DNA of 64,000 nucleotides from Gemmatimonadaceae bacterium (GTDB taxonomy: Bacteria; Gemmatimonadota; Gemmatimonadetes; Gemmatimonadales; Gemmatimonadaceae), in contig JAIEMN010000020.1 of NCBI GenBank assembly GCA_019752115.1, positions 138,267 to 202,266 on the forward strand, read 5' to 3'. A program made the position numbers and the translations under genes. The notes under the pieces are model-generated. The model worked only from the letters and a program-made list of their open reading frames with translations. It ran no database searches and had not been told where the DNA came from. Shown one piece after another: positions 15,481 to 64,000 of this stretch; within the stretch, counting starts at the first letter, position 1, and the number at the start of each line of letters is the position of its first letter.

Positions 15481-15600
15481 GCCCAGAACGAACCCACAAC
15501 CCACCCACAACCCACGACCAAAAGCCCGAGACCCAAAAACTGATCAGTTCTGGGTCTCGGGTTTTTGGTTCTGGGTTGTGGGTTGGTTCTGGGTTTGGTG
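15481..15600. repeat. ~120-bp imperfect intergenic palindrome (ACCCACAAC/CCCGAGACCCA type)
   Basis: Perfect 11-bp cccgagaccca (15525-15535)/tgggtctcggg (15551-15561) around the loop-less palindrome aactgatcagtt (15538-15549). Outer cacaaccca/tgggttgtg arms. Confidence 0.85.
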
Positions 15601-16183: not shown

Positions 16184-16204
16184 GTCCTGACGGTCAAGGC
16201 CACC

Positions 16205-16304
16205 GAACGGCTCGCACAGAGCTCACAAGGAACCACAGAGGGCACCGAGGACTGCAATCCTTGGTGCCCTCTGTGGTTCCCTGTGTACTCTGTGCGAGCT
16301 GTTT
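16205..16304. repeat. ~100-bp intergenic palindrome (CACAGAG type), the empty relative of the GxxExxY-flanking arms
   Basis: 42-bp arms 16210-16251 and 16258-16299 match 38/42, with a 6-nt loop. 16205-16222 is 18/18 identical to the reverse complement of 63267-63284. Confidence 0.92.
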
Positions 16305-16321
16305 GTTGTTAAAATTAGGGC

Positions 16322-17536: not shown

Positions 17537-17722
17537 GAACAGCGTATACGTACTGCGCATACGTGGAGCGCATACGTGGCGCGCATACGTACGGCGCACA
17601 CATACCGCGGTTGCGCTTCACGTATGCGCCCCACGTATGCGCCCCACGTATGCGCCCCACGTATGCGCCCCACGTATGCGCCCCACGTATGCGCCCCACG
17701 TATGCGCTTCACGTATACGCCC
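17537..17722. repeat. Palindrome whose arms are 13-bp tandem repeats (CACGTATGCGCCC)
   Basis: Six perfect and two variant units at 17619-17722; four to five degenerate inverted units at 17542-17606. The outermost units gcgtatacgt/acgtatacgc are exact inverted copies. Confidence 0.92.
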
Positions 17723-29228: not shown

Positions 29229-29355
29229 GAACGGAAGGGTCATTAACCCCTGAGAGTTCAGGGCGTAGAACGTCAGGGGGGAGAGCTCAGGACAGCCACC
29301 GCGGTCCTGAACTCTCCCCCCTGACGTTCTCCCCCCTGACCCCTCGGGGGTTCAG
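29229..29355. repeat. ~107-bp imperfect palindrome (TCAGGG type) between convergent genes
   Basis: Arms 29267-29293 and 29304-29330 match 26/27; outer arms 29245-29266 and 29331-29352 match about 17/22. GAACGG at 29229-29234. Confidence 0.88.
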
Positions 29356-44249: not shown

Positions 44250-44260
44250 GTGATGGGTGT

Positions 44261-44362
44261 GAACTGATCACATCCAAGACGTCCGAGCGATCCAAGGCGT
44301 CAGAGAACCATGTCGTGACTTCATGCCTTGGATCGCTTGAATGCCTTGGATGTGATCAGTTT
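44261..44362. repeat. ~100-bp imperfect palindrome (ATCCAAGGC type), second copy
   Basis: 39-bp arms 44262-44300 and 44323-44361 match 34/39, all mismatches being transitions. Ends GAACTG/CAGTTT. Confidence 0.9.
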
Positions 44363-44373
44363 ACCTCCACTCC

Positions 44374-60334: not shown

Positions 60335-60363
60335 CGCGCGGGAGAGCGTGATTCTGGCCTCGT

Positions 60364-60447
60364 AGTTCAGGAGCCAGGGAGAAGCAATCAGGGGGGAGTG
60401 CCGGTCATCGGCACTCCCCCCTGTCTTCTCCCGCCTGACTTCTAAAC
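60364..60447. repeat. Nested palindrome (AGTTCAGGAGCCAGG type), second copy
   Basis: Perfect 15-bp stem 60389-60403/60409-60423. 60364-60378 is 15/15 identical to 51242-51256. Confidence 0.88.
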
Positions 60448-60467
60448 AACGGTGTCAGTCGAGCGCT

Positions 60468-61535
60468 CTACTTCTTCTCCCCCGCCAGCATCAGCTGCAC
60501 ATGCTCATTCGCCTGTTGCAGCCCTCCTTCCTTGTCCGACCAATCAATGCGCCCATCGGCGTTGACGTCGGCGCCCATGGTGATCTGCTGGCAGAGCGAG
60601 ACGAGCTGCGACATCAGCGCGGCGGCGGCCTTGGCGTCTTTCGCCTGCCGCACCTGCTGGGCGAGCGCGATCGCGGCGTCGGCGCGGGCGGCGGTGGCGC
60701 GGGCGGCGGTGGCGATGTGCGTGGCGTGCACCTTCACGTTGGGGCTCGCGTTGGGTTCCTTGGCCGCGAGTTCGATGTGGTTGGCCACGCCGAGCGCGGC
60801 GGCCTTCACGCCAAAACCCTTGCCCGGACCGGTCTTCTCGATGGCCGGATCGAGCGCGTTCAGAATGTGGCCGGCGTGCAGCTGCAGCTGGGCCAGATCA
60901 TTCGGATTGCGCATCGCCAGCGCGGCGTGCTGTGAGGCGACCGTCGCCTCCGCAAAGGCCATCACGAGCAGCCCCGACTTGTCAGGGGTGTCGATGAAGC
61001 TGGTCGTAAGATGCGAGATATGCGTGCCCACCATGCCACCGGGCAGCTGACTCGACGGCACGAAGCCGCTCACCGTGGCCGCCACGGCGCGCCCGGGGAG
61101 CGGGGCGCCGGTGAGCTTGGCCATGATGCTGTCGAAGGAATTCCGCAGCCCTTCGGTGGTGCTCACCATGAAGCGCTGCCGCCGGTACTCGGCGTCGGTC
61201 ATCCCCTTCTGCTTGAGCACCTCACCGATCAGTCGCTGCTTTTCCTTGGCCAGGTCGGCCTGGGTCTCGTCCTTCTTGTTCTTCGCCTGCGCGGCACGCG
61301 CGTCGGCCGAGTCATGGACGAGGCCGATGGCGAGCTGCGTTTCGGCCAGCTTGCGGATCTGCTCGATCGAAAGCGCCGGCTGCCCGGCCGCGCTGGCCGC
61401 CGGGGGCGCCGGGGGGGCGCCGCCGGCCGTCTGCGCCTCGAGCGAGGCGGTGGTGAAGAACAGCCCCAGCGCGAGCAGCGCGGGAACATAGGAGGGCCGC
61501 CAGGTGCGGCCATCACGAAGCGGGAGGGAGTGCAT
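60468..61535 (-). CDS. Secreted, mostly helical hypothetical protein
   Basis: Long ORF with typical codon usage and a signal peptide; no family recognised. Confidence 0.7.
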   Translation of the reverse strand: MHSLPLRDGRTWRPSYVPALLALGLFFTTASLEAQTAGGAPPAPPAASAAGQPALSIEQIRKLAETQLAIGLVHDSADARAAQAKNKKDETQADLAKEKQRLIGEVLKQKGMTDAEYRRQRFMVSTTEGLRNSFDSIMAKLTGAPLPGRAVAATVSGFVPSSQLPGGMVGTHISHLTTSFIDTPDKSGLLVMAFAEATVASQHAALAMRNPNDLAQLQLHAGHILNALDPAIEKTGPGKGFGVKAAALGVANHIELAAKEPNASPNVKVHATHIATAARATAARADAAIALAQQVRQAKDAKAAAALMSQLVSLCQQITMGADVNADGRIDWSDKEGGLQQANEHVQLMLAGEKK

Positions 61536-61758: not shown

Positions 61759-62715
61759 ATGCGTCGACTACCGCAGCACCTGCTCGCGACCACCCTGCTG
61801 GCTGGCCTCGTTTCGCTCGCGCCGGCCGCTCACGCCCAGGGCGGCGGTGCGCCCCCCGATCCACGTAACCGCGGTGGCGGCAACTGCGCCCAGAATGCGT
61901 ACAACTGCGTGGACGCCGTCAATCCGCTCCCCGCACCGAACACGGTGTGGATGGAAGAGATGACGTGGATGGATGTGCGCGACGCCATCAAGGCCGGCAA
62001 GACCACGGTCATCATCGCCACCGGCGGCATGGAGCCCAACGGCCCGTGGCTCGCCACCGGCAAGCACAACTACGTGCTGCACGCCAACTGCGAAGCCATT
62101 GGCCGCAAGCTCGGCAACGCGTTGTGCGCGCCGATCGTGAAGTTCGTGCCCGAAGGGCGTATCGATCCGCCCACGAGCCACATGGTCAGCCCGGGCACGA
62201 TCTCGATGCGCGAGGAGACGTTCCGCGCGATGCTGATGGATATCGGGATGAGCCTCAAGCAGCATGGCTTCCAGAACATCATCTACATCGGCGACAGCGG
62301 CGGCAATCAGGCCGGCCAGCGCTGGGTCGCCGACTCGCTCACGAAGATCTGGCAGGGCTCGCCGGTCATCGCACACATCCAGGAGTACTACGACTACGCC
62401 GGCGCCGCGGCGTACATGAAAGACCACGGCATCGTGGATGGGGCGTCGGACAACCTGCACGACGACGCGATCATCTCGCTCAACATGTTCATGGATGATC
62501 CGAAGAGCATCCGCTACGAGGAGCGCGTGAAGATCGGCAAGGCGTCGATCAACGGCGTGAACATTGCCGATAAGAAGAAGAACACCGAGCTCGGCAAGCA
62601 GATCATCGCCTTCCGCGCGCAGGTGGCGGTGGATGCGATCAACAAGGCGATCGCGAACAAAGGCACGCTGCCCGCGCCCGCCGGGCGTGGGCGCGGAGGG
62701 CCGGGGTCGTTCTAA
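61759..62715 (+). CDS. Secreted creatininase-family protein
   Basis: EEMTWMDVRDAI, TTVII.TGG.E, GTISM, IIYIGDSGGN; signal peptide. Confidence 0.85.
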   Translation: MRRLPQHLLATTLLAGLVSLAPAAHAQGGGAPPDPRNRGGGNCAQNAYNCVDAVNPLPAPNTVWMEEMTWMDVRDAIKAGKTTVIIATGGMEPNGPWLATGKHNYVLHANCEAIGRKLGNALCAPIVKFVPEGRIDPPTSHMVSPGTISMREETFRAMLMDIGMSLKQHGFQNIIYIGDSGGNQAGQRWVADSLTKIWQGSPVIAHIQEYYDYAGAAAYMKDHGIVDGASDNLHDDAIISLNMFMDDPKSIRYEERVKIGKASINGVNIADKKKNTELGKQIIAFRAQVAVDAINKAIANKGTLPAPAGRGRGGPGSF

Positions 62716-63284
62716 CTGCGCACACAGGGTGCATGGAGACGGACGAGGGCACAGGGGACTACGGTCTCCTGTGCCTTTCTCCTATTGCCATCCGTTCATC
62801 ACTCGGTGAATGCCGTCGGTGAGACGTTCCATGCCGAAATTTAGGAGGAGGCCCGTACGCTTGTTCGAGAGTCTGAGGTAGGTGAGCAATTGTTTGGTAT
62901 AAACCGGATGATGCAGTTCGGAGCACTTGATCTCGACTATCACCCGGTCATTCACGAGGAGGTCGACTCGGTAGCCGAGCTCCACGCGAATTCCTCGATA
63001 CTCTACAGGGAGCACCAGTTCCCGTTGCGGGTCGAGTCCCCGATCGCGCAGTGCATGGGTCAGGCACTCGGCGTACACTCGCTCGAATGCCCCTGGTCCG
63101 ATATGCCGGTGCAGCCGGATCGCCTCCTCAATGATCACGCCGGTGATGTCGGTATCTGTGAGCATGCGTGAATAGATACGCGGCGATCGTCATCACACCG
63201 TCACCACGCGGGATCAAGAAGGGCACAGAGGACTGTAGTCCCCTGTGCCCTCTTCTGTCTCCGTGCGCTCTGTGCGAGCCGTTC
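62713..63284. mobile_element. Candidate GxxExxY element: nuclease gene between 68-bp imperfect inverted arms
   Basis: 62713-62780 versus the reverse complement of 63217-63284 aligns ungapped at 55/68, including an 18/18 core. Each arm carries a 12-13-bp hairpin. Mobility is not shown. Confidence 0.55.
62782..63165 (-). CDS. GxxExxY protein (PD-(D/E)XK nuclease fold)
   Basis: GPGAFERVY (GxxExxY), YRVDLLV...VIVEIK catalytic motif, QLLTYLRL...GLLLNFG. Visibly more AT-rich than its neighbours. Confidence 0.93.
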   Translation of the reverse strand: MLTDTDITGVIIEEAIRLHRHIGPGAFERVYAECLTHALRDRGLDPQRELVLPVEYRGIRVELGYRVDLLVNDRVIVEIKCSELHHPVYTKQLLTYLRLSNKRTGLLLNFGMERLTDGIHRVMNGWQ

Positions 63285-64000
63285 AGCGCACCTTCGCCCG
63301 TTCGATCTTCATCGCCGCGCCCGTCGGTAGCGCGCCCGCGGCCCCGATGGCCGTGGCAGGGCCTTCGCGTACCGCGAGATAGACCACACCGCCGGCGCCG
63401 AAGCCGAGGATGGTGCGGCCTTCGGGGATGAGTACGCGATCGATCGCCTGCCCGTCCTTGTCGAGGATGTCGTAGACCACACCGGCGGGCTGCGGCTTCG
63501 TGGGGATCGTCTGGATCCAGATGTTGCCGTCGAGGTCCGCGCGCGCGCTATTCGCAAAGAACGGCGGCTGATAATCCGGCAGTTCGCTTGGCGACACCAC
63601 CGTGAGCTTCGGGGCCGTCATCTGCGGGGCGCGCACTGGGCCACCGCCGCCGCCCGGGCCGTCACCGGCGCGCATTTCGAAGCGCATGGTGACCGCCGGG
63701 GCCGCGCCGCCACCACCGCCCATCATGGACTGGAAGCCCTGCTGCAGCGCGTTGCCGCCGGCGGAGCCACTCGCGAACTGCTTCTCCAGGATCTTCGACA
63801 CCGAGTCAACCAGCTTCGCCTTGTCGTCGTCGGTCATGCGCTTCCAGTCGAACGCGACCTTCTGCGAGCTGCGGCGCTGACCGTCGGCGCCGACCCAGTC
63901 CACATGGAAGTCCTTGCCACGCAGGATGGCAATGTCGCCGTTCGACGTCACGACCCACTCGTCGATCACGGGTAGCGGGTTGATCTCCACCGACACGCTG
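63283..64000 (-). CDS. Hypothetical protein (beta-propeller-like with Gly-rich insert); 5' end beyond the window
   Basis: Open frame to the window edge; ADLDGNIWIQ...VYDILD...GFGAGGVVYL strands. Confidence 0.7.
   Translation of the reverse strand, partial: SVSVEINPLPVIDEWVVTSNGDIAILRGKDFHVDWVGADGQRRSSQKVAFDWKRMTDDDKAKLVDSVSKILEKQFASGSAGGNALQQGFQSMMGGGGGAAPAVTMRFEMRAGDGPGGGGGPVRAPQMTAPKLTVVSPSELPDYQPPFFANSARADLDGNIWIQTIPTKPQPAGVVYDILDKDGQAIDRVLIPEGRTILGFGAGGVVYLAVREGPATAIGAAGALPTGAAMKIERAKVR

Follow-up and report, generated by a model that had tools for sequence, protein, structure and literature searches.

A long palindrome between two genes of an uncultured member of the Gemmatimonadaceae probably belongs, as a gene-less and non-autonomous form, to a family of palindromic elements that at full length carry a gene for a GxxExxY nuclease. 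This palindrome, here called the solo, lies in a stretch of 64,000 nt (the window), the sequence of which is contained in drinking-water metagenome runs; the same window holds a GxxExxY gene enclosed by two arms (the GxxExxY unit). Among named homologues, those closest to the proteins encoded beside these elements come from Gemmatimonadaceae. We find that the solo and the arms of the unit are homologous, that the source genome has further copies, that arms of this type accompany GxxExxY genes across phyla, and that elements are rapidly gained, lost and replaced at orthologous sites. The best reading of the solo is a non-autonomous derivative of the MITE or REPIN kind, for the mobilisation of which we propose a mechanism below.

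The solo and the GxxExxY unit have homologous arms

The solo lies between a DinB-family gene and a class I/II aminotransferase gene (Table 1). A preliminary description of the window had given it as a palindrome at 16205-16304 with 42-nt arms paired at 38 positions; the palindrome is real, yet slightly larger, and the 42-nt arms pair at 37 of 42 positions. Each complete arm consists of about four tandem 9-nt units (CGCACAGAG / CTCACAAGG.. / CCACAGAGG / GCACCGAGG), and the folding energy of the solo is -90.8 kcal/mol for RNA (z = -14.6) and -49.9 for DNA (z = -11.7). No promoter was called by consensus scans in the solo region or the region of the GxxExxY unit, and no Rfam covariance model matched the window at its gathering score.

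Table 1 Features of the solo palindrome, the GxxExxY unit and their neighbouring genes (window coordinates)
Feature	Start	End	Strand	Description
DinB-family gene	15668	16183	+	stop codon 21 nt upstream of the solo
Solo palindrome	16201	16308		A-B-loop-B'-A'; two 54-nt arms (16201-16254 and 16255-16308), 85% complementary, spacer 0 nt
Outer terminal motif of the solo	16205	16222	+	GAACGGCTCGCACAGAGC; same as the right terminus of the GxxExxY unit
Central hairpin of the solo	16240	16269		B-loop-B'
Aminotransferase gene, class I/II	16322	17536	+	start 13 nt past the solo
Creatininase-family gene	61759	62715	+	left neighbour of the unit; served to locate orthologous sites
Left arm of the unit	62714	62780	+	outer part A (AACTGCGCACACAGGG...) and inner hairpin 62746-62780
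GxxExxY protein gene	62782	63165	-	127 aa, PD-(D/E)XK nuclease superfamily
Right arm of the unit	63217	63283	-	inner hairpin 63220-63251 and outer part A', ending ...CTCTGTGCGAGCCGTT
Convergent gene, function not known	63283	64000	-	right neighbour of the unit; continues past the window end

In the GxxExxY unit (62714-63283), the gene is flanked by inverted arms of 67 nt that are 82% complementary and are each terminated by an inner hairpin; these two hairpins are also 83% identical to each other as direct repeats. The start of the left arm overlaps the stop codon of the creatininase-family gene (TAAC...), and the end of the right arm overlaps that of the convergent gene (...GTTCA). The layout of the unit corresponds to a solo with [B'-gene-B] inserted in its central loop.

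The proposed homology of the solo to the arms of the unit was confirmed at several levels. The outer terminal motif GAACGGCTCGCACAGAGC is identical at 18 of 18 positions to the reverse complement of 63267-63284, and the central hairpin matches 63221-63250 at 24 of 30 positions, both as previously described. With up to 3 mismatches, the motif occurs at 3 sites in the window, compared with 0.21 expected from shuffles. Moreover, a degenerate arm pattern matched exactly four arms in the 64 kb, two of the solo and two of the unit (0.00 expected); the arms start with AAC(G/T)GCTCGCACAGAG and have lengths of 45-67 nt. Arms of the solo and the unit are identical at 33-40 of 50 positions (66-80%), and therefore the two are not a recent parent-offspring pair.

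The window contains at least six other long intergenic palindromes (1502-1568, 15491-15595, 17542-17720, 29245-29352, 44254-44369 and 60343-60469), with folding energies between -59 and -120 kcal/mol; these are of unrelated sequence families and unlike the GxxExxY arms. Several have arms of short tandem units, and that at 17542-17720 comprises about seven copies of the 13-nt unit GCGCATACGTGGx. Long palindromes from many families characterise the source genome and, because these six families have no link to GxxExxY, long palindromes in general do not need a GxxExxY gene. An AAC start and a GTT end are common to GxxExxY-type elements and two of the unrelated palindromes (those starting at 15491 and 29245); at the site of the unit, the AAC and GTT bases (62713-62716 and 63281-63285) extend into the stop codons of the two convergent genes.

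Gene-less copies are present elsewhere in the source genome and in Gemmatirosa

Further copies in the source genome, on the existence of which the preliminary description had staked its reading, were found: arms with at least 80% likeness to those of the solo are present at three further loci of the source organism, with five distinct flanks (Logan contigs, runs X1-X4), so that the copy number is at least 3 besides the window solo, as a lower bound. The read depth of these loci resembles that of the host (e.g. 8.0 compared with 7.1), and one of them is itself a solo, one arm of which is identical at 46 of 46 positions to the left arm of the window solo. A multi-copy solo with a near-identical arm elsewhere points to solos spreading without the gene. 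Additional contigs, with other flanks, contain matches to the right terminus of the unit. In the metagenomic GxxExxY loci described below, gene-less palindromes with the arms of the filled units occur in the vicinity of these units, and motif matches remote from the genes are mostly plus/minus pairs, i.e. solos.

An exact look-up of the GxxExxY protein of the window returned two short Logan contigs only, both of which break inside the right arm. Short-read contigs of the source community (Logan L001 and L002, run X1) stop inside the arms (63278-63283), and the read depth at 63226-63279 is approximately 3-fold that of the flanks. The arm repeats fragment assemblies. A scan of contigs of species-representative genomes, among which the source genome is absent, gave 78 matches to the degenerate arm pattern, nearly all of them chance matches and close in number to the prior estimate; only two contigs of one Gemmatimonadaceae MAG (L012, L079) were real.

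In the metagenomic locus L100, a second element is located 1.3 kb from a filled unit, and 86 nt at each end are common to both; this common part comprises the arm together with its inner hairpin and another ~15 nt. The interior of the second element, ~115 nt of unrelated sequence, retains nothing of the gene. The two stand in the classic relation of an autonomous to a non-autonomous element.

A cultured member of the Gemmatimonadaceae, Gemmatirosa kalamazoonensis KBS708, has on its plasmid 1 a GxxExxY gene between two complete solos, both of which start with GAACCGCAGAGGACGCAGAGGGCCGCAGAGG. For this 90-nt solo, a search of 72,556 plasmids gave at least 40 matching pieces on plasmid 1, at least 39 on plasmid 2 and no match on any other; by contrast, tblastn located GxxExxY only on plasmid 1, in two places. 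Thus, in Gemmatirosa solos are at least 10-fold more numerous than GxxExxY genes (at least 79 pieces compared with 2 places), and 190 kb that we sampled contain 7 solos and 1 gene. The homologue at 19993-20414 of L193 (plasmid 1, 993.8 kb) is covered by two tblastn segments in different frames and may be frameshifted, by mutation or by sequencing error.

Elements are gained, lost and replaced at orthologous sites

At the site of the solo, relatives were ranked by the identity of their DinB protein to that of the window. The same solo is present in the strain in run X5 (L177, 99%), while L178 and L179 (96%) carry a different solo of a CACGAAG subtype with arms GGCACGAAG / GACGGGAAG / GGCACGAAG. 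In L180 and L181 (91%), a 5'-truncated GxxExxY-family gene is located right after the stop codon and is followed by C[AG]CGGAT palindromes, which in L180 (10850-11350) form about 2.5 tandem palindromic units of ~190 nt; the C[AG]CGGAT arm units of L180 also occur in an AT-rich metagenomic locus (L162). The site is empty in eight contigs from different samples (L182-L189, 90%), in which a 12-nt spacer separates the DinB and aminotransferase genes, and in the outgroup (L190 and L191, 79%) the spacer measures 87 nt and contains an ordinary GC hairpin. Comparison of the window solo with the empty site revealed no target-site duplication. Because eight contigs lack a hairpin, no structure is required at this site. 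In total, we conclude that the solo is a derived insertion and that its site was struck by three subtypes of one superfamily. The suggestion that solos are polymorphic between strains therefore holds, with the orthologous site being empty or occupied by an ordinary hairpin, another subtype or a truncated GxxExxY gene, and these differences in presence are as expected for mobile DNA.

The solos of L177 and the window differ at 14 of 100 positions, compared with about 3% over the 1.1-kb region as a whole, and both versions fold at about -87 kcal/mol. That arm substitutions might be compensatory, a point raised in the preliminary description, is true of part of them: one double substitution is compensatory and five single substitutions keep the pair, whereas two break it.

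At the site of the unit (the filled site), identities refer to the C-terminal ~190-280 residues of the creatininase-family protein. L167-L170 (97.8%) carry a GxxExxY gene on the plus strand, i.e. opposite to that of the window, which is only 63% identical and has different arms; L167-type arms are also present at this site in the strain of X5. In L171 (97.4%), the gene is absent and the site is occupied by a 190-nt palindrome of an unrelated family (2338-2525; four ~19-nt units GCAGATGGGGTAC.. per arm, -147 kcal/mol), which begins TAACTGC at the stop codon. More distantly, L079 (87%) has the gene on the plus strand (81% identical to that of L167 and 65% to that of the window), L081 (83%) has it on the minus strand (62% identical to that of the window), and L173-L176 (85%) have an ordinary 42-nt GC hairpin within a 67-nt spacer. 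Thus, within the clade of the window, L167 and L171, the flanking protein is 97-98% identical, yet the site has three different occupants. The stop codon (TAAC...) contains the start of every element at the filled site, and strains with different occupants differ in the final residues of the creatininase-family protein. We conclude that whole elements, arms included, are replaced between near-identical strains.

Two joints in metagenomic contigs were considered and rejected. A joint on opposite strands in X6 does not prove an inversion: the contig is 153 nt long and comprises one hairpin and the region upstream of the gene and, given the likeness of the two inner hairpins, the normal arrangement would account for it just as well. 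A joint from 62727 to 63215 in X5 and X6 is not an empty site: ~485 unaligned bases lie between its sides and an L167-type arm follows, and this joint represents a different filled unit. Separately, a PIN / PhdYeFM toxin-antitoxin pair is located ~7 kb from the filled site in L167 (11712-12475) and L171 (8896-9644).

Arms of one type flank GxxExxY genes across phyla

We collected 80 metagenomic GxxExxY loci by means of two peptide motifs; as the loci were picked by protein motifs alone, their flanks had no part in the selection. For the 63 unrelated loci with at least 220 nt on each side, the upstream flank was compared with the reverse-complemented downstream flank by best local alignment, with 160 same-length positions elsewhere in the same loci as controls. 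The median inverted-repeat score was 17, compared with 8.35 for shuffles and 8.5 for controls; a score of at least 15 was reached by 41 of 63 GxxExxY loci and by none of the 160 controls (Mann-Whitney p = 1e-23).

Everywhere the arms are of one type, with three or four tandem units of the core C[AG]C[N][AG][AG]G (CRCNGAG type), most commonly CACAGAG, CGCAGAG, CGCAAAG and CACGGAG, spaced 8-9 nt from start to start. This type is present in organisms of 37-69% GC, and the arms in the window (TCGCACAGAG|CGCACGGAG|ACAGAAGAG|GGCACAGGG) belong to it. A triple-unit pattern was found 144 times within 250 nt of gene ends (~40 kb) compared with 31 times in the remaining ~315 kb, an enrichment of ~37-fold. 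Many metagenomic arms begin with (T)TAAC or TCAC. Locus layouts vary: A-gene-A' is the most frequent, and in some loci the gene has an entire palindrome at one flank or at both. We detected no other cargo between arms and no second gene remnants in the 80 loci, and no consistent direct repeats indicative of target-site duplication at the arm ends of 29 loci; Rfam searches of 20 related loci returned tRNAs only, with sub-threshold matches to generic miRNA-type hairpins. Together with L100 and Gemmatirosa, these data extend the link of GxxExxY genes to arms and gene-less derivatives, drawn in the preliminary description from the window, across phyla.

In L102, L097, L088 and L131, GxxExxY genes are located within arrays of up to 11 arms of alternating orientation, ~30-100 nt apart. 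We suspect that repeat finders may take such arrays for CRISPR-like repeats.

The GxxExxY protein is a minimal PD-(D/E)XK nuclease homologue

The protein encoded in the unit matches TIGR04256 (121.6 bits, 2e-35; cut-off 35) and PF13366 (PDDEXK_3; 118.3 bits, 3e-34; cut-off 22). G25, E28 and Y31 as well as the catalytic residues D68, E78 and K80 are invariant among 47 homologues, and the AF2 model of the window protein (pLDDT 92.9) displays a minimal PD-(D/E)XK core. A sequence search of the PDB detected no solved relative, and Foldseek against the PDB gave weak, generic PD-(D/E)XK matches, e.g. Cas4 SSO0001 and lambda exonuclease. The family is very large and diverse, with 2,364 clusters at E<=1e-10 among the 2,407 candidates scored; the nearest homologue of the window protein among them is 62% identical. 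The function of PF13366 was listed as unknown in a superfamily survey of 2012 (PMC3424549).

Proposed mechanism and alternative explanations

The rows of three or four 8-9-nt CRCNGAG units in the arms look like an array of putative protein-binding sites. We propose that the nuclease would bind these units and cut the palindrome in its hairpin or cruciform state, and that copies would afterwards spread through repair or recombination. The combination of a palindrome with a PD-(D/E)XK enzyme that is small and probably a dimer is suggestive of hairpin or cruciform cutting followed by repair copying, and the lack of target-site duplications fits a route by repair or recombination better than classical cut-and-paste transposition. 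Recombination between the two inner hairpins might delete the gene, and so give rise to a solo, or flip it; because the inner hairpin is itself a palindrome, its two copies are both direct and inverted repeats and either outcome would be possible. The preliminary description had solos and filled units interconvert by exchange at the central hairpin; such exchange was not seen, in that no site, the two orthologous sites included, was found with a solo and a filled unit of the same arms.

More broadly, we tentatively suggest, while aware that this may well prove too wide, that GxxExxY proteins, a family of 125-aa nucleases, could be the cognate enzymes of cross-phylum palindromic mobile elements with CRCNGAG units. 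These would make up another REPIN-like system, independent of the first, in which a PD-(D/E)XK nuclease takes the place of the HUH transposase and recognises DNA in hairpin or cruciform form; the system would comprise units with the gene and far more gene-less palindromes, and would preferentially replace ordinary hairpins at gene ends. Counting against the non-autonomous reading of the solo, elements sit where relatives have ordinary hairpins, and a host role, in termination or insulation, could maintain them.

The solo had been described either as the non-autonomous form or as the target into which the nuclease gene inserts. Under the second reading, which we consider unlikely, the GxxExxY protein would be a homing endonuclease that cuts the centre of a vacant palindrome, and repair from a filled copy would add the gene, with the 40-60-nt arms providing homology for repair and the gene landing in the loop. 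This would agree with the layout of filled units, in which the gene occupies the loop of a solo (in the window as well as in most metagenomic loci, with their simple A-gene-A' order), with the GxxExxY remnant at the orthologous site of the solo in one relative, with the replacement of cargo at one site between near-identical strains and with the lack of target-site duplications. However, the solo, missing from relatives and the outgroup, is a derived insertion in its own right and is multi-copy with a near-identical arm elsewhere, and for these reasons the non-autonomous form is favoured over the target. Moreover, solos in Gemmatirosa outnumber genes at least 10-fold, and the filled unit retains two intact inner hairpins and both arm junctions, the survival of which would argue against simple disruption of a recognition site. 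The data thus favour the non-autonomous form; the two readings are compatible, as the solo could be a derivative and a target at once.

Alternatively, the arms could act mainly in RNA, with a stem of ~60 bp enclosing the nuclease mRNA for RNase III-type processing or insulation, similarly to the stems around ORFs in rRNA intervening sequences, and with solos as the remains after gene loss; we regard this as very unlikely. The minimum-energy fold of the whole unit does pair both 67-nt arms around the ORF (-259 kcal/mol, z = -6.7), and pairing is retained despite 14% divergence of the solo between strains. By contrast, mismatches between arms have no strand bias towards G-U on the sense strand (89 vs 88), so that the palindromy is symmetric at the DNA level and selection does not look RNA-strand-specific; there is no Rfam family match, and the dispersal of solos to new sites is left unexplained.

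Least probable of all, and harder than the other two alternatives to reconcile with the cross-phylum association, is an ordinary palindrome (a terminator, an insulator or REP-like) that serves the host itself and in which a GxxExxY gene landed by chance with no functional tie: ordinary GC hairpins are present at both sites in relatives (L173, L190), unrelated long intergenic palindromes are numerous in the window, and the very stable solo hairpin is followed on the plus strand by an interrupted T-rich run (TGTTTGTTGTT), whereas the GC-rich stem is not immediately followed by a U-run as in an intrinsic terminator, a consensus scan called no intrinsic terminator at the solo or the unit, the flanking genes lie 12 nt apart with no hairpin in eight relatives' contigs, and GxxExxY is linked to this arm type across phyla and a wide range of GC, with 0 of 160 controls reaching the score.

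If the non-autonomous reading of the solo and its link to GxxExxY are correct, DNA with CRCNGAG arms, around the gene and as gene-less palindromes, would provide a first testable function for GxxExxY/PDDEXK_3, explain a class of long intergenic palindromes in the Gemmatimonadota and other phyla that break assemblies, and extend the REPIN-type lifestyle to a second class of enzyme. The cultured G. kalamazoonensis KBS708 carries the GxxExxY-solo system and makes direct testing possible.

Comparison with known systems

In REPIN-RAYT systems, palindromic repeats flank the RAYT gene and are also dispersed as gene-less hairpin doublets, while RAYTs are typically single-copy and vertically inherited (PMC3116915, PMC3337134, PMC8266576); REPs measure 20-40 nt and carry GTAG (or CGTC) as a conserved end tag (PMC3733652). 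The elements described here are similar in that the gene is flanked by repeats, inverted doublets form hairpins, gene-less copies are far more numerous than the gene (at least 3 loci in the source genome; at least 79 compared with 2 in Gemmatirosa) and target-site duplications are lacking. They differ in that the protein is a 127-aa PD-(D/E)XK nuclease and not an HUH/Y1 transposase (RAYT), the arms are 45-67 nt long and consist of tandem 8-9-nt units with no GTAG/CGTC tag, and gene and arms are replaced between strains that are 97-98% identical in the flanking protein. The label REPIN is thus used for the solo by analogy only.

As in MITEs, a small non-coding element, the solo, shares terminal inverted repeats with a longer coding element; however, the duplication typical of MITEs was not seen (29 loci; window solo compared with the empty site), and the coding partner encodes a predicted nuclease that would be the putative mobiliser of both forms. 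The Correia/NEMIS and ERIC elements are MITEs with long hairpin-forming inverted repeats, with a TA target duplication in Correia; they are intergenic, non-coding palindromes of ~100-150 bp that are polymorphic between strains and form long DNA or RNA hairpins. To our knowledge, they have no cognate gene with the same ends, whereas the elements described here have a gene-carrying counterpart and no visible duplication.

IS200/IS605 elements have hairpin ends, and their TnpB has been reported to act as a homing nuclease (10.1101/2023.11.20.567912 / PMC10690162). The elements described here are alike in their hairpin ends and in encoding a nuclease that could cut vacant sites and so lead to recombinational repair, and differ in that they have no TnpA, TnpB or guide RNA, that their end hairpins are mutually inverted and that recognition would be by protein or DNA structure.

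As with homing endonuclease genes, a small nuclease gene is present or absent at a fixed site with divergent alleles and conserved flanks, as observed at the creatininase site. Free-standing homing endonuclease genes include PD-(D/E)XK examples, e.g. I-Ssp6803I. By contrast, the target would here be a palindrome repeated at many sites and not a unique conserved gene sequence, and the gene-less copies are themselves insertions.

Integron attC sites are imperfect palindromes of ~60-140 bp that are bounded by ...AAC / GTT... and recombined when folded. An attC reading was rejected, as there are no RYYYAAC/GTTRRRY cores, cassette array or intI nearby; unlike attC sites, GxxExxY-type elements are dispersed among housekeeping genes.

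In the literature searched, mostly from outside the subscription journals, we found no description of an association of GxxExxY with palindromes, and an earlier description is possible; the element family is widespread and apparently undescribed. What is already known, from REPIN-RAYT, is a gene flanked by repeats that also spread gene-less; what differs here is the class of enzyme, the architecture of the arms and the turnover of the elements.
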